In this document: in pieces, positions 1-60,314 of the stretch
Layout of the letters: each line of letters begins with the position of its first letter
How positions within the stretch are numbered: position 1 is the first letter of the stretch
Assembly: GCA_041659765.1 (NCBI GenBank)
Contig: JBAZXR010000001.1
Coordinates: forward strand, 787,338 to 851,337
Length of the DNA: 64,000 nucleotides
Reading direction: 5' to 3'
Source: Patescibacteria group bacterium
Lineage (GTDB): Bacteria > Patescibacteriota > Patescibacteriia > UBA9934
The notes under the pieces: generated by a model
What the model was told of the DNA's origin: nothing
The model's database searches: none
Seen by the model: only the letters and a program-made list of their open reading frames with translations
Translations under genes and position numbers: made by a program

Positions 1-1960
<1,960 letters not shown>

Positions 1961-6342: not shown

Positions 6343-6427
6343 GGGCGAGTGGTGAAATTGGCATACACGCATGCCTTAGGAGCATGTGGAGCAATCCGTG
6401 GGGGTTCGAGTCCCCCCTCGCCCACCA
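6343..6427 (+). tRNA. tRNA-Leu (anticodon TAG)
   Basis: GGGCGAG...CTCGCCC acceptor, anticodon stem CATGC/GCATG with loop CTTAGGA, long variable arm, GGTTCGAGTCC T-loop, encoded CCA. Confidence 0.85.
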
Positions 6428-30906: not shown

Positions 30907-32292
30907 CTAATAGGTCTGTCCCACTACTCGAGCTGCTTGAGAAACGGCTTTCTTAGGATCATCAGTGCCAACTAGAATAGTTGTCGATAGATCGCTCAGG
31001 GCTTTAAAGGCCGCGTCTGAGTCTGAACCATGATACCAACTTTGGGAAGTTAGCAGCTGGCTAGCAAAGACACCCAGGGTTTCGTCTTCTAGTTCCGCGC
31101 CAATCAAACTGCGGACAGCTGTGGGGTGTCCTGACTTAGCCAAGAAAGAAGTAACGTTTTTGGGATTAGAGGCGAAGTCCAAGAAATTCCAGGCGTAATC
31201 ACCAAATTTTGAGGTTTTAGATACGCCCTGCAACCAGTAGTTGGGGTAGTTAACAATTCGTCCGCCGGCGATTTGCGGGAGAGGAGCAATACCGTAATTC
31301 AATTTTGGAGCAGCCGCTGTCAGGATTGGCACGTCATAACTGTACCCGAGCATGAACGCTGTTTGACCGCGGGCAAAGGCGCTAACCGAATTTGGAAAGC
31401 CATCATTCCAGGTGTAAACCTCTTTTACTGGATTAGCAAAGTCCGTGTAGAAAGTCACGGCATCAAGCGCTGGAAACACGCCCTGTGGCGTGCCCTTTGG
31501 TACGCCATCAAAGGTTGGGTTGCCGTTTTCATCAGTCATCTGAGCACCATTTTGCATCATGAGAACGGAAATAATATCGCCGGAACGGTCAACGTTCTTC
31601 ACCGTTCCGAGAGCTGCTCCTGACTGAGCTACTCCCCCGGTAGCATCATACTTAGTCAGTTTTTTCACGGCCTCGTTAAACTGATCCCAAGCTGCGGGCG
31701 GCTCAGCAATACCGGCTGAGTTCAGTAGATCCTTGTTATAAAACAAGGCCAGCGTGTCCATAGAGAACGGGAAGCCGTAAATCCTGGGCGTTGCTGCCAT
31801 CTTAGGATCAGCGGTGTAGTTCAAAATAGCATCTGAAGAAACAACATCAACAAACTGTGACTTAAAAGTTTTCTGTGACATGGTGGCTTCCTGCTTGGCT
31901 ACCAGCGCTGTTTCTTTTCTGAGTGTTCCTTGGGTCACCAAATAGCTAATATTGAGCTGTGGCGGCATGGGCGAAAGCAAACTCTGGAATTCGGACATCT
32001 TAGTATTATGAACTGAGAAAATATCCGGCCCGGTACCATCGGCCAGCGCTCGGATCAGTTCTTTTTCATATTCTTCTGGGCGAAACTTTCTATACTCGAT
32101 GGTCACGTTAGGATGAGCCGCTCTATAGGCTGAAAAAAGCTCGCGGTAGGCTGTTTCATCATCAAACACGCTCCAAAATTTAAGCGTTACTTTTTGTTGT
32201 ACTGGAGCAGATGAGCTGCCACCGGAACAACCGGCACCCACCATAACCAACGTAGAAAACAGGAAGAAAATTGAGAGTAAGCGCTTAATCAT
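30907..32292 (-). CDS. extracellular solute-binding protein (ABC transporter, family 1, sugar-type), lipoprotein
   Basis: Start at MIKRLLSIFFLFSTLVMVGAGC; SBP_bac_1-like; no permease/ATPase adjacent. Confidence 0.65.
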   Translation of the reverse strand: MIKRLLSIFFLFSTLVMVGAGCSGGSSSAPVQQKVTLKFWSVFDDETAYRELFSAYRAAHPNVTIEYRKFRPEEYEKELIRALADGTGPDIFSVHNTKMSEFQSLLSPMPPQLNISYLVTQGTLRKETALVAKQEATMSQKTFKSQFVDVVSSDAILNYTADPKMAATPRIYGFPFSMDTLALFYNKDLLNSAGIAEPPAAWDQFNEAVKKLTKYDATGGVAQSGAALGTVKNVDRSGDIISVLMMQNGAQMTDENGNPTFDGVPKGTPQGVFPALDAVTFYTDFANPVKEVYTWNDGFPNSVSAFARGQTAFMLGYSYDVPILTAAAPKLNYGIAPLPQIAGGRIVNYPNYWLQGVSKTSKFGDYAWNFLDFASNPKNVTSFLAKSGHPTAVRSLIGAELEDETLGVFASQLLTSQSWYHGSDSDAAFKALSDLSTTILVGTDDPKKAVSQAARVVGQTY

Positions 32293-32845
32293 AGATATAA
32301 AGAGTGGTTCCGCGTTTGAGTCCGGCGAGTTGTTGTTCAACGGTTCTCGTAGGTTTTCTGTGCTCGAGGGGGAAATCGATCGCGACAATACGAGTTCCAG
32401 GCTTCAATTCTTGGTCTAGCTTAGCTTCAACCCGTTCCATGAGCGTCGGAAAGAGGTAGGTTACGACGTGAGTCGCCTCAACGAGGTTTTCTTTGAAGAA
32501 ATCGCGCCTAAGTATTTCGATCCGTGTCCCTCTGGTCCGGTATTTCGCTATGAGGTACGGCAAAAGAGCTTTCTCAAGGCCAACTGCGCGGATATTCAGA
32601 TTTCGCCGAATGACCGCGAGCAAAACCCGGCCGTCTCCACAGCCCATATCATACACCACAGCGCCATCAGCGAGTTCGAGTGCGTCGACAATGCCCTGAA
32701 CAGCCTTTGATGGTACTGGCACGAACGGCGCACCGCTGCCAACAATACTAACGAACCAAAGAATGACCAACGGCAATACAAAAAAAGTGAGAAAAATGGC
32801 AAAGACTACAAGGAGAATCGTAGCGATTGTAGAAGTGATCAACAT
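32285..32845 (-). CDS. membrane-anchored class I SAM-dependent methyltransferase
   Basis: N-terminal TM helix; MGCGDGRVLL motif I. Confidence 0.55.
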   Translation of the reverse strand: MLITSTIATILLVVFAIFLTFFVLPLVILWFVSIVGSGAPFVPVPSKAVQGIVDALELADGAVVYDMGCGDGRVLLAVIRRNLNIRAVGLEKALLPYLIAKYRTRGTRIEILRRDFFKENLVEATHVVTYLFPTLMERVEAKLDQELKPGTRIVAIDFPLEHRKPTRTVEQQLAGLKRGTTLYIYD

Positions 32846-32853
32846 GCCATTAT

Positions 32854-32928
32854 GTCATTCTGAGGAGCTTCGAGCGACGAAGAATCTGATTGGTTACCAT
32901 TCAGATCCTTCGCTATGCTCAGGATGAC
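32854..32928. repeat. ~75-nt long-palindromic MITE/REP-like element, copy A
   Basis: gtcattctgaggagcttcgagcgacgaagaatctgattggttaccattcagatccttcgctatgctcaggatgac; nested inverted repeats. Confidence 0.65.
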
Positions 32929-32931
32929 TGA

Positions 32932-33816
32932 CTACTCGCGAGACTTCAAATACTCTGCTAAACCTTCTTTCACCTCCGGATGCAAGAGGCCGAGTTCAAT
33001 CTGGGCGATAATGAATTGGAGTTTATTACCGCAATCGTAGCGTTTGCCGGACAAAACATGACCGTACAGCTGCTTGCCGGCATCAACATAAGTAGTAAAA
33101 GCGTCGGCCAGACGAATCTCTCCGTCCTTACCCGGTTTCTGTTTCTCAAGTAGGCGCAAAATTTCTGGCGTAACAATATATCTGCCAACTGAGGCCAGGT
33201 TAGACGGTGCGTCCTCCGGGGCTGGCTTTTCGACGAATCTTTTTACTTGCCAAGTATTCCCAGCAATTTCTACGCCATCGATGATTCCATAGCTAGAAAC
33301 CTTCTCGTGCGGTACTTCCTGCACGCCAACCACTGGTGCACCGAACTTTTCGTAGGTTTCGATCAGCTCGCTAATAGCCGGACGCTCGCCGGAAAAAATG
33401 TCATCACCGGTAAAAATCGCCACCGTTTCATCGTCACCCACAAATGGAGCGGCGGCTAGAATGGCATGGCCATCGCCAAGCGGTTTCTGCTGACGCACGA
33501 ACGCAAACTTAGCAAGCTTACCGATGGCTTGAATGGCTTTCAGCTCGGCCATCTTCTTCTTTTGCTCCAGGCGATACTCAAGCTCAAAATTGCGATCAAA
33601 ATGATCTTCGAGCGCCCTCTTGCCCATGGCGGTGACGAAAATAACTTCCTCAATGCCTGCAGCCACTGCTTCTTCGACGATGTACTGAATCACTGGTTTG
33701 TCGACAACCGGCAGCATTTCCTTTGGCTGTGCCTTGGTGGCTGGCAAAAAACGCGTACCCATTCCAGCTACTGGAATAATTGCTTTTCTAATCTTTTGCG
33801 ATTTTTTGGGGGGCAT
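32932..33816 (-). CDS. galU: UTP--glucose-1-phosphate uridylyltransferase
   Basis: AIIPVAGMGTRFLPATKAQPKEMLPVVDKP N-terminal signature; full-length collinearity. Confidence 0.85.
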   Translation of the reverse strand: MPPKKSQKIRKAIIPVAGMGTRFLPATKAQPKEMLPVVDKPVIQYIVEEAVAAGIEEVIFVTAMGKRALEDHFDRNFELEYRLEQKKKMAELKAIQAIGKLAKFAFVRQQKPLGDGHAILAAAPFVGDDETVAIFTGDDIFSGERPAISELIETYEKFGAPVVGVQEVPHEKVSSYGIIDGVEIAGNTWQVKRFVEKPAPEDAPSNLASVGRYIVTPEILRLLEKQKPGKDGEIRLADAFTTYVDAGKQLYGHVLSGKRYDCGNKLQFIIAQIELGLLHPEVKEGLAEYLKSRE

Positions 33817-33835
33817 AGTGGTTCAGTCATCCTGA

Positions 33836-33901
33836 GCGTAGCGAAGGATCTGATTGATCAACCATTCAGATCCTTCGTCGCTAAAAGCTCCTCAGGATGA
33901 C
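33836..33901. repeat. ~75-nt palindromic element, copy B (inverted relative to A)
   Basis: gtcatcctgagcgtagcgaaggatctgattgatcaaccattcagatccttcgtcgctaaaagctcctcaggatgac equals the reverse complement of copy A over its asymmetric parts. Confidence 0.65.
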
Positions 33902-33910
33902 TACAGTTTA

Positions 33911-34813
33911 TCACTTCTTAGCAATGACGATAAAACTCAGTACCCCCAGCGTTGGGTCTTTACGGTATCTTCGACGAACATGAGGACGGTCGCGCTTGAG
34001 CTTAGCTTCGTCCATCACAATCTCCGGGATGATGTCGATCAGCGTAAAGCCGAGGTCGCTTAATGTCTTCTCGTACACGCTCGGACGAACGCGATTGGGA
34101 ATTCCCGAGAACTTGGCGAGTCTGTAGAGCAAACGAGGGTAGCGATAAATGTTCAATGGGTCGCGGTCACGAATCACTCGCGTATGTGTTTGCAAATCAA
34201 CATGAGCCACGAGTGCTCCGCCGGGAGCGAGAACTCGACCAACCTGCGCCAAAATTTCAGGCACATGGTCAAAATGCTCAAAAGCGGCGTTACTAACTAC
34301 GAGATCAACACTTTCAGCTGGCAACCAGTTAAATGAAAAGGACTGATCCTGCTTGAAGATCAGGGTAGTTGGCTGCTTAATTTCATAAGCCAACAACGCT
34401 TCTTCCGCACGCTTCCTGGCGCCAGCGTCATTGATCGAGGCGATGACCGCATTATGCAATTCCTTCGGCGCGCGGTCAGCGAGTGGATTCTTATCATAGG
34501 CCGTATACGACTCGGCGCCCTTGGCAACCAAAATTAAGCCGACGCCCAGGTCTGCGCCAGGGCCAAGCTCGAGGATGCGCTTGCCCGCAAATGGTTGAGA
34601 GCCGAAGCCTTTCTCGATGAGCGCCCGTTCCCAACGTTCCACCACTTCATGGTCGTATTTCACGGCTCGACGCGTGTCGTCCACCGAAAATTCGCGCGGG
34701 CGGTGATAGCCCGTTACCCGATATCTAAACTTATTAGCAAAGAGGATTCCAAGCCCCAGCCACCAAAAAAACCATTGTCGCAACATATACGAATAGTGTA
34801 ACATCCTTTGCAT
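33911..34813 (-). CDS. class I SAM-dependent methyltransferase
   Basis: ILELGPGADLG motif I, VSNAAFEHF motif. Confidence 0.6.
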   Translation of the reverse strand: MQRMLHYSYMLRQWFFWWLGLGILFANKFRYRVTGYHRPREFSVDDTRRAVKYDHEVVERWERALIEKGFGSQPFAGKRILELGPGADLGVGLILVAKGAESYTAYDKNPLADRAPKELHNAVIASINDAGARKRAEEALLAYEIKQPTTLIFKQDQSFSFNWLPAESVDLVVSNAAFEHFDHVPEILAQVGRVLAPGGALVAHVDLQTHTRVIRDRDPLNIYRYPRLLYRLAKFSGIPNRVRPSVYEKTLSDLGFTLIDIIPEIVMDEAKLKRDRPHVRRRYRKDPTLGVLSFIVIAKK

Positions 34814-35451: not shown

Positions 35452-36513
35452 CTAGAAGAGCGGGAGGTTGCCGAGCGAGATCACGTCCGGGCGAACGTCC
35501 GGGCCTTCCGTGAAGACCGCAAGCGTGCGCTCGTAGATCGCACCGACCTTCTCGAGCAGCTGCTTCATGGCATCGAGCGTTCCACCAGTGGAGACCACAT
35601 CATCCACGATCACCACGTGCTTGCCACGGAGCATTTCCGCGTCGCTGACGGAGATGTACAGCGTCTGCACGCGGTCCGTGGTGATGCTCTTCACCTGCAC
35701 GGACACGCAGTCGCCCATGTAGGGCTTCTTCTCCTTGCGCGCAACCACGGTGGGCAGCTTGAGTTCGCGACCGATGACGTGGAGGAGTGCCTGCGCCTTG
35801 CCATCCGGCATGATGAGCACGTCCACTGGTGGCATGAGCTTGGCCGCCAGCTGCTGCCCCAAGAATTCGGTCAGCTCCCAATCTCCGAGGAGGTTGAAGA
35901 GCGCAACGGAGATGCCAGGAGCGACCTCCCGGATGGGGAGCTCGAGCGTGCGCGAACCGATCTGCACCTTGTGAACACGAGACACGGTCACCTCCTTTTT
36001 GCCGTTGAACACCTGATCGAACAGTTTGATGAGTGCTTCTTCCAAGAACTGCGCGCGCGACTTCTTCCCATCGGTCAGGAAGGAGTGTGGATCCGAGCTG
36101 GAGCATCCATACCGCTCCGCCATCACAGCCCCTACCGTTGTGTTGAAGAACCCGATCGCCAGGGCTTCCTCGACCGCTTCGGCCGGGAGAACTACGTACT
36201 CGGTCCGGGCTTCGTACTCACGACCGTTCGGGTCCACGAGGACGATGTCCGCGGCATCCCGCCACACGCCATTCCCCAGGAACGCTCCGTTCTCGATCCC
36301 CAAGCCCCACGAGCCGGGCCTGGTCTTCTGCGCTCCGATGGCACGGGTGCGGGCTCCTCTGCGCGTCTGGCCCTCGAGGGGCTGACAGTTTTCGCCTGAA
36401 TCCATGTTCTCTTGGTAGAGCTTGAACACCTTAGGGCCAACAGCCAGCAAGGCGTTGGTCGTGCCCAGGAACTTCTCTTGGCTATGTGAGCCAACCACGA
36501 TCTCCAGAATCAT
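35452..36513 (-). CDS. fusion protein: YjjX/ITPase-XTPase-like NTP phosphatase domain + type I phosphoribosyltransferase domain; G+C-rich
   Basis: N-terminal TRRGARTRAIGAQK and GLGIENGAF resemble YjjX TRAGARNRV.NA / IEAG; C-terminal VVIVDDVVSTGGTL PRPP-binding motif. Confidence 0.5.
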   Translation of the reverse strand: MILEIVVGSHSQEKFLGTTNALLAVGPKVFKLYQENMDSGENCQPLEGQTRRGARTRAIGAQKTRPGSWGLGIENGAFLGNGVWRDAADIVLVDPNGREYEARTEYVVLPAEAVEEALAIGFFNTTVGAVMAERYGCSSSDPHSFLTDGKKSRAQFLEEALIKLFDQVFNGKKEVTVSRVHKVQIGSRTLELPIREVAPGISVALFNLLGDWELTEFLGQQLAAKLMPPVDVLIMPDGKAQALLHVIGRELKLPTVVARKEKKPYMGDCVSVQVKSITTDRVQTLYISVSDAEMLRGKHVVIVDDVVSTGGTLDAMKQLLEKVGAIYERTLAVFTEGPDVRPDVISLGNLPLF

Positions 36514-36522
36514 GTTCTCCCC

Positions 36523-37458
36523 CTAACCGTCCATGACGGCGTTGATCATTGATTTCACGAGGCTCAACACCTCGAACGGCGGCTGATCCTTCACGAGTCC
36601 CGCAGTGACCGGACACGAGTCCGTGATCCACACGCGGTAGAACCCGGCGTTCAGAAACCGCTTCCAGGCGTCCTTTTCCATGACGCCGTGCGTAGCAAAG
36701 GCACTGACCTTCACCGCGCCTGCCGCCTTCATAGCATGCATGCACTCGATGGTCGTTCCGCCGGAATGCACGAGATCATCCACGATGACCACGTTCTTCC
36801 CCGCGGGATCGCCCTCAATCACCGTCACGATCCGTTTGTCGCCGTGCCGCTGCTTGCGGCAGATGACAAACGGAAAGAGCGGTTTGCCCTGGTCGTCCGA
36901 GAAAAGCACCTTGAAGCGCTTCCACGCCCCCTCGTCCGGAAACGCGACAGTGACGTCGCCCTCCTGTTCGAGCCGGGCCTTGAGCACCTTCGTGCCAGTC
37001 TTGAACCGCGGCGCGATGTTCGCCCCGAAGTAATGCCGGATCGGCAGGGCATGAACGTCCCACATGTAGAGCGGGATCGGTCCAGGACCAGACGGCGGCA
37101 ACGCAGAGAGGAGCCGGGCGAGCGTACTTGCCGTGGCAACTTGTCCTTCCATGTCGATGCGTTCCATGGTTCCCGTCGGGAAGTACGGAAGCAGGAGGCG
37201 AAAGGACTTCGGACGGGCCTCGGCAATGGCGAGCATCACGCTCCACTGTTCGAATACCGTTTCCGGGGAATCGAGCGAGGCAAGATACGCGACGTCGCGG
37301 TTGCGGAGGTCATCGAACCCCCGGATCATGATGTTCGGCCAGGCATCGGGGAACCGTTTCCAGTCCACGACGCCGAGCTCAATGCGCCCATCGAGCTCGG
37401 CCATCTGGCGAGCAATCGTCATGGCCTGCGGGCAGTGAAAGAGCAGTCGCTTGTCCAT
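36523..37458 (-). CDS. prs: ribose-phosphate pyrophosphokinase (PRPP synthetase)-like
   Basis: Start at MDKRLLF; VVIVDDLVHSGGTTIECMHAMKAAGAVKVSAFATHGV aligns to Prs C-terminal PRPP-binding region; G+C-rich. Confidence 0.6.
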   Translation of the reverse strand: MDKRLLFHCPQAMTIARQMAELDGRIELGVVDWKRFPDAWPNIMIRGFDDLRNRDVAYLASLDSPETVFEQWSVMLAIAEARPKSFRLLLPYFPTGTMERIDMEGQVATASTLARLLSALPPSGPGPIPLYMWDVHALPIRHYFGANIAPRFKTGTKVLKARLEQEGDVTVAFPDEGAWKRFKVLFSDDQGKPLFPFVICRKQRHGDKRIVTVIEGDPAGKNVVIVDDLVHSGGTTIECMHAMKAAGAVKVSAFATHGVMEKDAWKRFLNAGFYRVWITDSCPVTAGLVKDQPPFEVLSLVKSMINAVMDG

Positions 37459-37601
37459 GTGATGTGTCCTCCCGGATAACAAAGTAACTTGCCGGGCAAC
37501 TTTTGTACACTCTATGTCGTAGATGCATGGTGACACTTTAATCACTATTGCTAATATTAGTGATATTATTTATTCTATAAACAACGAATAACGTCGTTGA
37601 T

Positions 37602-53469: not shown

Positions 53470-53543
53470 GCATCCACTCTGAGCCTTGCGAAGAGTCCGA
53501 CCCTCAGAGGAGAAAGTCGGATCCTTCGCTCTCGCTCAGGATG
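53470..53543. repeat. degenerate copy of the ~75-nt palindromic element
   Basis: catccactctgagccttgcgaag...cggatccttcgctctcgctcaggatgg shares both outer arms and inner arm fragments. Confidence 0.3.
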
Positions 53544-53557
53544 GGAACAGAAATGTT

Positions 53558-58254: not shown

Positions 58255-58261
58255 AGGTGCT

Positions 58262-58501
58262 TCTGATATTTATATATAAGATAACTAGTAGTAACAGTGA
58301 GTCTGTGGATGAAGTGGATAACGCTTGTTGTCCCCGTCCCATTTGAGTTCCTGACGATTTCACCTGTGTGAAAAGTCTGTGAACAGCTGTGAGGACGTTT
58401 GGGATAACTGGCAGTAGTCTACACCATTTAACTCTGTCCCCGTTTTATCCGCAATCCTATCCCCAGACTTATCCATCCCCATATCAACAGACTTATCCAC
58501 A
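58262..58501. promoter_or_regulatory. oriC candidate part 1: AT-rich DUE-like stretch + DnaA-box cluster in dnaA-dnaN spacer
   Basis: ttctgatatttatatataagataactagtag (58262-58292); boxes ctgtggatg 58303, agtggataa 58313, ttatccgca 58443, ttatccatc 58468, perfect ttatccaca 58493. Confidence 0.55.
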
Positions 58502-58525
58502 TTATGTGCACCTCGGGTGGTCGAA

Positions 58526-58601
58526 ATCATCCTGAGGAGCTCTTAGCGACGAAGGATCTGATTGGTTGACCATTCAGATTCTTCGCTACGCTCAGAATGA
58601 C
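58526..58601. repeat. ~75-nt palindromic element, copy C (inside origin spacer, abutting dnaA stop)
   Basis: atcatcctgaggagctcttagcgacgaaggatctgattggttgaccattcagattcttcgctacgctcagaatgac. Confidence 0.65.
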
Positions 58602-58609
58602 TCAACGAA

Positions 58610-60013: not shown

Positions 60014-60058
60014 AGCGCGAAGCGTTTAGGAATAGACGACAAGGCGCATCATAGTGAA

Positions 60059-60116
60059 TATATCCACAGCCCACAAGCACCCGCAACCATTGGTCTATCT
60101 TCACAACTGTGGATAA
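60059..60116. promoter_or_regulatory. oriC candidate part 2: DnaA boxes between dnaA and rpmH
   Basis: atatccaca (60060-60068, 8/9) and perfect tgtggataa (60108-60116) in inverted orientation. Confidence 0.5.
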
Positions 60117-60314
60117 CTTGGGGGCAAGTCGGTTAGCCATCGCGAGACTGGCAGTCAGGCTAACGGATTGAAGCAACTTTGTGGGGCCTCTTACTTGATG
60201 GCAGGCCGGCCTCTGATTTTCGTCGAACAGACTCGTCACAGGAACTGGTCGGTGTATACTGCCCCTAGGATTTGACTGTTTTAGCGAACTTCGCTATCCT
60301 CACGCTACTTTTAT

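Follow-up and report, generated by a model that had tools for sequence, protein, structure and literature searches.

Repetitive extragenic palindromes (REPs) of the CGTC type are hairpin units with an unpaired CGTC tag, often TGTC, a stem of 8-9 positions opening with an A-T and a T-A pair, a loop of 4-5 nt and a short tail of consensus CCA (Di Nocera, De Gregorio & Rocco 2013, BMC Genomics 14:522). In the sections of this survey drawn on here, the units are described as high copy number repeats, located mainly between unidirectional or convergent genes and mostly arranged as inverted dimers, heterodimers being the majority in two families. They were reported from five phyla, the group including dRS3 from Neisseria and RPE-4/RPE-6 from Rickettsia, and the table of encoded peptides (VIPAKAGI etc.) gives Watson-Crick inner stems for the families CGTC-1 to CGTC-4 (BMC Genomics 14:522). 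The same sections report no dedicated transposase, and no REP-associated tyrosine transposase (RAYT) or IS200 gene flanked by the units (BMC Genomics 14:522). Here, we describe four palindromic elements, named A to D, in a stretch of 64,000 nt (the window) of a Patescibacteria genome (GenBank assembly GCA_041659765.1, contig JBAZXR010000001.1, positions 787,338 to 851,337 of the forward strand). Two of them, A and B, flank galU, the gene coding for UTP-glucose-1-phosphate uridylyltransferase. We conclude with high confidence that A to D are REP dimers, non-autonomous repeats resembling bacterial interspersed mosaic elements (BIMEs) and REP doublets forming hairpins (REPINs), which fall by their layout in the CGTC/TGTC-tagged superfamily, and that the galU pair consists of independent neighbours.

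Results

Four palindromic dimers in the window

The sequence-only reading of this region had described two inverted palindromes of about 75 nt beside galU (32932..33816, minus strand). Both are real: element A (32854..32928, 75 nt) and element B (33826..33901, 76 nt) occupy the two gaps around the gene in opposite orientation, no strand being assigned to these or to the other elements. The alignment of A on the plus strand with B on the minus strand showed 88% identity, an asymmetric 8-nt insert included, in agreement with the proposal that B is the reverse complement of A over the asymmetric parts. The nested arms are also as described, with outer arms GTCATYCTGAG/CTCAGRATGAC and inner arms CGAAGRATCTGAWTG/CAWTCAGATYCTTCG. 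The limits of A were given correctly; the start of B, placed at 33836, was wrong by 10 nt and lies at 33826. Similarly, A is located 3 nt past the galU stop codon, as had been said, and 8 nt, not 9 nt, ahead of the next ATG (32845), and B is found 9 nt past the stop codon of the upstream gene, for which 10 nt had been given, and 9 nt instead of 20 nt upstream of the galU ATG (33816). The upstream gene codes for a SAM-methyltransferase (33911..34813, minus strand) and the downstream gene for a 186-aa methyltransferase-like protein (32285..32845, minus strand).

In element A, a long-arm unit (32854-32886, forward on the plus strand, stem P1 ATTCT/AGAAT) is followed by a spacer (32887-32903) and a short-arm unit (32904-32928, forward on the minus strand, P1 ATCCT/AGGAT). 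In element B, the short-arm unit (33826-33850, forward on the plus strand) precedes the spacer (33851-33868) and the long-arm unit (33869-33901, forward on the minus strand). We found also two copies that had been missed. Element C (58526..58601), oriented as A, is located in the dnaA-dnaN spacer, 8 nt past the dnaA stop codon and 24 nt from a perfect DnaA box, and is 87-91% identical to A and B over its full length, spacer included. Element D (about 53473..53545) is a diverged dimer of the same unit type, with units at 53476-53496 (plus strand, P1 ACTCT/AGAGT) and 53521-53542 (minus strand, P1 ATCCT/AGGAT), placed 12 nt past the stop codon of a PBP1-type gene and 15 nt ahead of the next start codon. 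All four elements lie between co-directional genes and start 3-12 nt past a stop codon.

The count refers to the 64 kb of the window, which comprise about 60 gene gaps. Allowing at most one mismatch, the motif GTCATYCTGAG gave 7 matches in the window against 2.0 expected, a number reached in 0 of 100 shuffles; a looser unit scan gave 57 matches against 33 in the control, mostly noise, with no copies beyond the four dimers. The RNA folding energy, a check which the sequence-only reading had suggested, was -30 to -41 kcal/mol for the elements, far better than that of shuffled sequences (z-scores of -4 to -8). An Rfam search of the elements returned no match at the gathering score or at E<=10, a full-text literature search with the sequence of the elements and the peptides of its six reading frames yielded primers and unrelated matches only, and element B had no BLAST match among plasmids and phages at E<=0.01.

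The surroundings of element C carry DnaA-box-like sites at 58304, 58313 and 58445 in the dnaA-dnaN spacer and a perfect TTATCCACA at 58493. An AT-rich stretch (58265-58290) lies in the same dnaA-dnaN region (58255-58609), and two further DnaA boxes, at 60060 and 60108, are found upstream of dnaA (60050-60120). This spacer region is probably oriC.

Anatomy of the hairpin unit

Each element consists of two inverted units joined by a 17-18-nt spacer with complementary ends. The unit is a hairpin of 25-33 nt, (Y)GTC-ATYCT-GAG-[CGNAG or mini-stem]-CGA-AGRAT-C, made of an unpaired 5' tag (Y)GTC, a 5-bp stem ATYCT/AGRAT, a tandem G.A/A.G step (UGAG/CGAA) and an apex, either GCGNAGC or a longer, variable mini-stem. 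The short form reads GTC-ATYCT-GAG-CGTAG-CGA-AGRAT-C; in the long form, GAGCTTTTAGCGA replaces the 5-nt loop and repeats the 'GA-stem-GA' arrangement around a GCT/AGC mini-stem. The commonest apex class is the 5-nt CGNAG loop, present in 64 of 166 units with C, A, G or T as N. In the window, the short arms carry the loop CGTAG or CATAG and the long arms a 13-nt mini-stem instead, the tags are AGTC (four times), TGTC (once) and AATC (once), and the tail is CTGA, compared to C-TC/TG in the wider family.

Set against the CGTC/TGTC description, the tag agrees at its GTC core with a variable first base, and the stem ATYCTGAG/CGAAGRAT opens as expected, with an A-U pair at positions 5-25 in 114/150 units and a U-A pair at positions 6-24 in 111/150, two of its eight positions being G.A rather than Watson-Crick pairs. 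The loop is within the 4-5 nt range, and a tail is present with a sequence other than CCA. Units are paired in opposite orientation in 4/4 window elements, A, C and D being heterodimers. Two readings of the UGAG...CGAA step as an RNA motif were dropped: inspection by eye showed that the CUGA-N-GA core of a hammerhead ribozyme is missing, and the K-turn lacks its 3-nt bulge.

The conserved fold is the unit hairpin

The Y and R positions of ATYCT/AGRAT covary within the unit (T-A 90, C-G 71, C-A 5, T-G 0), in counts obtained with a search pattern that permitted all four combinations. Stems outside the seed pattern retain exact complements (ATGCT/AGCAT, ATTGC/GCAAT, ATTCC/GGAAT, ACCCT/AGGGT and ACTCT/AGAGT), and GAG...CGA becomes GAA...TGA with both sides changing together. 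Over 150 distinct units, the named structure is paired in 86.5% of cells against 75.2% in shuffles, with a covariation score of 0.305 compared to 0.137 for the shuffled set; none of 500 shuffles scored as high, and slid controls stayed at or below 0.134. Dimer partners are random for stem type, with 33 homodimers and 69 heterodimers (n=102; expected homodimer fraction 0.34). Within the window, the long arm of A and the short arm of C show a double change of T/A for C/G that keeps the pair inside the unit and breaks the pair between the arms. Both folds are possible and, as far as the compared sequences go, evolution supports the unit fold only; the structure conserved by covariation is the unit hairpin and not the eye-catching long palindrome.

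Spread of the unit across bacteria

An exact-pattern scan for the unit matched at least 120 stretches in IMG/VR, and a scan including the extra CTGA of the window subfamily matched at least 120 stretches in GTDB species genomes. More than 15 phyla are represented among the matches listed, including Nitrospirae, Bacteroidota, Firmicutes, Chloroflexi, Acidobacteria and Saccharibacteria, together with Alpha-, Beta-, Gamma- and Deltaproteobacteria, Planctomycetes, Verrucomicrobia, Armatimonadetes, Synergistetes, Deferribacteres, Ignavibacteria and Latescibacteria. One 25-nt unit with the G.A tandem and the GCGNAGC apex is therefore common to more than 15 phyla, the tiny genomes of the candidate phyla radiation included, a breadth unusual for REPs, which normally differ from lineage to lineage. 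In 2.0 Mb of fetched loci, we counted 477 units, compared to 30 when the sequence was reversed as a control. The GTC tag was present in 413/477 units, the base before it being mostly T, then C.

Pairs in these loci were predominantly '+-' dimers (69, against 9 '-+' and 9 direct pairs). By a crude open reading frame (ORF) call, 37% of elements were inside ORFs compared to 82% of the sequence coding overall, and divergent gaps were depleted (8% against 16%); the gaps occupied in other genomes were co-directional in 117 cases, convergent in 41 and divergent in 14. Solitary units in other genomes had no significant strand bias (41 same, 27 opposite). On two IMG/VR contigs, units flank a tail-fibre-like gene with a Gp53-like_C domain (L002, 1364-2305) and a phage capsid gene (L049, 3863-5367), so that the unit family is also present inside bona fide phage genomes. 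In an Aminivibrio metagenome-assembled genome (L129, 3268-4888), a gene for a HicB-like antitoxin is located between BIME-like arrays of 9 and 5 units.

galU and its gene neighbourhood

A related Patescibacteria contig (L362) exhibited the same gene order as the window, methyltransferase-galU-181-aa ORF-SBP-pilins, with proteins 95% (methyltransferase), 97% (GalU) and 83% (181-aa ORF) identical to those of the window. Its gaps around galU are 15 nt and 3 nt long and contain no element, and a search of the whole contig for the unit motif found none. The contig is not from a close strain, since its galU shares 82% nucleotide identity with that of the window and 52% at third codon positions. In three more distant relatives (L241-L243, GalU 63-73% identical), galU is followed directly by the SBP ortholog (52% identity), with no elements at galU. 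The G+C content of galU, 0.46-0.51, matches that of its neighbours, and the best GalU homologues are from Patescibacteria and Candidatus Uhrbacteria; the sequence-only reading had suggested checking galU for an unusual phylogeny or G+C content, and neither is seen. The 186-aa methyltransferase-like gene downstream of galU has its counterpart in L362 (83%), from which its product differs at the N-terminus by an indel, and is absent in L241-L243, where galU abuts the SBP gene.

If four elements were placed at random in about 60 gaps, two would be adjacent about 19% of the time. Element-rich loci of other genomes contain 53 unrelated ORFs flanked on both sides, and clustering of the ORFs between element pairs revealed no recurring protein family among these 53.

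A GIY-YIG nuclease gene nested in units in other phyla

An ORF screen showed that a 114-aa ORF beside a dense unit array (L229) codes for a GIY-YIG domain protein. Only two GIY-YIG genes were present in 2.4 Mb of fetched loci (L229 and L185), both in the densest unit arrays; in L185, a forward unit ends 13 nt ahead of the ATG and a reverse unit starts at the stop codon. Nine independent loci, from Nitrospira (including N. allomarina), Dehalococcoidia, Delta- and other Proteobacteria and unclassified bacteria, have their nearest units 13-90 nt upstream of the ATG and 2-64 nt past the stop codon (376 nt in one case). In four of the nine, tag-outward units stand on both sides, which makes the GIY-YIG gene the 'spacer' of a dimer. 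In another four, the gene lies between complete dimers or arrays, and in the ninth (L344/L352) the nearest unit is forward-oriented on each side. A 100-nt remnant of a decayed GIY-YIG gene is found between two inverted units in L321, and a scan of viral contigs for the gene gave one remnant only.

The genes are inserted among housekeeping genes (for example glmU-like/glmS, hsdM/hsdS and next to polA). In L346-L351, the GIY-YIG gene and its flanking REP dimers split hsdM/hsdS of a type I restriction-modification system, normally a tight pair. The loci L323-L331 (at about 600-870 in each) carry an identical GIY-YIG protein in different samples, with an upstream array of 2 to 5 units, suggesting that unit arrays expand and contract rapidly; these arrays include tandem copies of a 33-nt variant unit.

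The homologue ORFs read into the units, giving C-termini DPSLRSG* or DSSLRSE*, in which the TGA of the unit provides the stop codon, and unit-encoded N-termini CHPERSEGS or ILRFAQNDK. Strict unit peptides were present in 21/96 diverse representatives with extensions, against 1 in a shuffled control. The family comprises 5,207 clusters at 50% identity (E<=1e-10) and is about 70% identical across phyla. Its catalytic residues Y7, Y17, G19, R27, H31, E64 and N83 are conserved at 94-100% in 211 members, and the nearest solved structures are the UPF0213 proteins 1ZG2 and 1YWL, a group classed with the structure-selective nuclease Slx1. No NCBIfam model covers this GIY-YIG clade, and our literature search found no paper linking GIY-YIG nucleases to REPs.

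Other features of the window

A partial 23S rRNA gene (1-1945, minus strand) is cut by the window start, and the Rfam scan placed five tRNA genes at 6343, 9197, 16643, 39984 and 52649. The segment 35500-37250 has a G+C content of 0.60-0.62 compared to 0.46-0.53 on either side and may be a foreign island; the genes located here are a fused NTPase_I-T and phosphoribosyltransferase gene (35452..36513, minus strand) and a 340-aa ORF (36523..37545, minus strand).

Discussion

The REP-like, MITE-like character that the sequence-only reading gave to the palindromes (MITE, miniature inverted-repeat transposable element) holds, as they are dimers of a widespread GTC-tagged hairpin unit which fits the layout of CGTC/TGTC-tagged REPs. 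In the explanation we prefer, the 75-nt dimer is copied as a whole in this genome and has settled, in both orientations, in the very short gaps that separate co-directional genes; the two copies around galU are independent insertions, neighbours by chance. As single-stranded DNA, the units might fold into hairpins that a structure-specific nuclease recognises and cuts; judged from other phyla, the likeliest partner enzyme would be the GIY-YIG nuclease of about 95 aa rather than a RAYT. Transcribed in the operon, a hairpin 3-12 nt past the stop codon might, as a by-product, influence mRNA decay or termination-coupled translation.

The bracketing of galU by two inverted copies, one on each side of one gene, had led the sequence-only reading to propose a composite mobile element carrying galU. 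A composite transposon consists of two transposase-encoding insertion sequences (IS) moving with the enclosed gene, whereas A and B are about 75 nt long and encode nothing. The related contig keeps the same gene order with empty gaps, the galU-SBP linkage persists in distant element-free relatives, galU has native G+C content and Patescibacteria homologues, and further copies stand beside dnaA and the PBP gene. Adjacency of two elements is not rare by chance, and in other genomes many unrelated ORFs are flanked likewise without any protein recurring. A composite element is accordingly extremely improbable, and galU is a native resident, not cargo. The alternative that the elements are terminators, also raised at the outset, fails for the intrinsic type: no T-run follows either hairpin, the intrinsic terminator scan gave no site at A or B, and the sequences after the hairpins are AUAAUGGCAUG or UGAACCACUAUG, without a U-tract. 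The elements are almost certainly transcribed, since they lie 3-12 nt past stop codons inside co-directional gene runs, and might be kept mainly for a role in RNA, protecting the upstream mRNA from 3' exonucleases or modulating termination-coupled expression. E. coli REPs stabilise upstream mRNA and, within about 15 nt of a stop codon, stall terminating ribosomes. The position of the elements in 4/4 cases and their strong predicted RNA hairpins (-30 to -43 kcal/mol) speak for such a role, and the tandem G.A and the loops of GNA type would suit RNA motifs as well. On the other hand, both orientations relative to transcription are found, A and C standing one way and B the other, and solitary units elsewhere lack a significant strand bias. 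Moreover, all five exceptions at the covarying pair are C-A, which is mismatched on the forward strand, with no U-G among them. Relatives with the same operon have empty sites, so the flanking genes do not depend on the elements. While an effect on mRNA stability is possible, we regard an RNA role as the main reason for their maintenance as rather unlikely.

Mobilisation by a RAYT (HUH-Y1), as for classical REPINs, would account for two inverted REPs forming a hairpin, the REPIN/BIME architecture, and for a conserved tag at the foot of an imperfect hairpin, as in GTAG REPs. But the tag of the unit is GTC and not GT[AG]G, tblastn of the window with IS200 TnpA and E. coli RAYT (approximate queries) gave no match, and the sections of the 2013 survey drawn on here know no RAYT or IS200 gene flanked by CGTC units (BMC Genomics 14:522). 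The one RAYT-like gene in the fetched loci, a 216-aa ORF (NHVHVLL...YIERNP; L092, 1000-2100, IMG/VR), has a different REP, of the GTGGCGCAGGCTTCCAGCCTG type, on its flanks. A GTC-tagged unit dimer lies 4 kb away, so that two REP systems are present on one contig. The combination of a GT[AG]G tag with a cognate RAYT was found neither in the window nor in the fetched loci, and a RAYT as the mobilising enzyme is improbable. Another proposal extends the REP-dimer explanation and does not contradict it: the GTC-tagged units could be the terminal hairpins or homing sites of a previously unrecognised selfish element distributed across many phyla, composed of a forward unit, the GIY-YIG gene of about 95 aa and a reverse unit, and the window dimers its gene-less, MITE-like derivatives or its homing sites. 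The presence of both genes of the 2.4 Mb in the densest arrays, the nine loci with close flanking units, four with the gene inside a dimer, the remnant between inverted units and the unit peptides at the protein ends point in this direction, as do the conserved catalytic residues of a large family and its closest structures, grouped with Slx1. The sections of the 2013 survey drawn on here give no dedicated enzyme for CGTC REPs (BMC Genomics 14:522), and we found no paper linking GIY-YIG nucleases to REPs. Against this, the 64-kb window has no such gene, so that the lead bears on the spread of the family and not on the window genome, and the sample is modest and Nitrospira-rich. Some genomes are unit-dense and proximity may partly reflect density, a caveat tempered by an estimate for the unit-selected loci, where only about 3% of the genes carry a unit less than 40 nt or so from either end. 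Several IS elements insert into REPs. The GIY-YIG gene could equally be a parasite homing to or inserting into them, and we hold the selfish element to be a tentative proposal, credible but somewhat short of even odds.

Several observations weigh against the REP-dimer explanation, which we nevertheless prefer. The four elements are those of the 64 kb covered, the copy number of the genome lying beyond that span, and the window contains no transposase or nuclease gene for them. Its copies deviate from published CGTC REPs by their AGTC/AATC tags, CTGA tail and non-Watson-Crick G.A pairs. No target-site duplication is readable at A and B; because L362 is diverged (about 82% nucleotide identity), its empty spacers do not align with the filled ones. 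The empty gaps of relatives could conceivably reflect loss there rather than gain in the window genome. Finally, nearest-neighbour energies favour the long hairpin, with -16 to -24 kcal/mol for the whole dimer as DNA, -30 to -41 kcal/mol as RNA and only -2.7 kcal/mol for a lone unit, and the palindromic spacer ends of the window subfamily serve the long form alone. For the window itself, the outcome is deflationary: galU is ordinary, and the palindromes, repeats of the REP type, came to lie in two adjacent gaps. As for the wider family, the mobilisation of CGTC REPs has been an open question since 2013, and the unit-nested mini GIY-YIG gene is a concrete candidate which can be tested at the bench; if true, it would be the 'missing enzyme' of CGTC-type REPs and would add a second, non-HUH route to REP proliferation.

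Comparison with known systems

The d(GCGNAGC) mini-hairpin is extraordinarily stable DNA, melting at 70-76 C (PMC13037366), and the commonest unit apex has exactly this sequence. The motif has been described at priming sites of phages and plasmids and in oligonucleotide chemistry (PMC13037366); it is not known to form the core of a repeat spread through a genome. The unit-nested gene has the GIY-YIG catalytic domain of UPF0213/YhbQ-type proteins, Slx1 and free-standing homing endonucleases; its product differs in its size of about 95 aa without DNA-binding extension and in its link to a hairpin repeat, not described in the papers searched, and the gene is not in the window. With the MITEs (Correia/NEMIS, RUP, Nezha), the elements share that they are small, non-coding, palindromic, intergenic and co-transcribed with their neighbours. 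The ends of the elements are inverted. Unlike MITEs, they show no readable target-site duplication and have no parent IS with a DDE transposase, the candidate for an autonomous form, the GIY-YIG element, being seen in other phyla only, and their building blocks are hairpin units that fold on themselves, not simple terminal inverted repeats.

Like the REPINs and BIMEs of Pseudomonas and E. coli, the elements join two inverted REPs across a short spacer, are copied as a single unit, lie between genes and are variably present among relatives. They differ in that the unit lacks the GTAG tag and showed no link to a RAYT in the window and fetched loci, and in a unit sequence conserved across phyla, REPIN sequences being lineage-specific. 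The closest likeness is with the CGTC/TGTC REPs, as these are described in the parts of the survey used here: the unpaired (C/T)GTC tag, the stem opening A-T then T-A, its eight positions, the 5-nt loop and the short tail, the inverted dimers, often heterodimers, folding separately or as one large stem-loop, the preference for gaps between unidirectional or convergent genes and the lack of a known dedicated transposase. In contrast, the inner stem of the window type is the tandem G.A with the GCGNAGC apex instead of Watson-Crick pairs, compared with GTCATTCCCGCGAAAGCGGGAATC, which we back-translated from the CGTC-1 peptide VIPAKAGI; the unit tail is CT(C/G), not CCA, and the window tag AGTC; the apex is often replaced by variable mini-stems; and the unit is found in many more phyla than the five of that description, Patescibacteria included. 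The placement in the superfamily is made by layout, the families CGTC-1 to CGTC-4 being compared through their description and encoded peptides only. The elements are GTC-tagged REP dimers in a Patescibacteria genome, and they join an already known kind of repeat.

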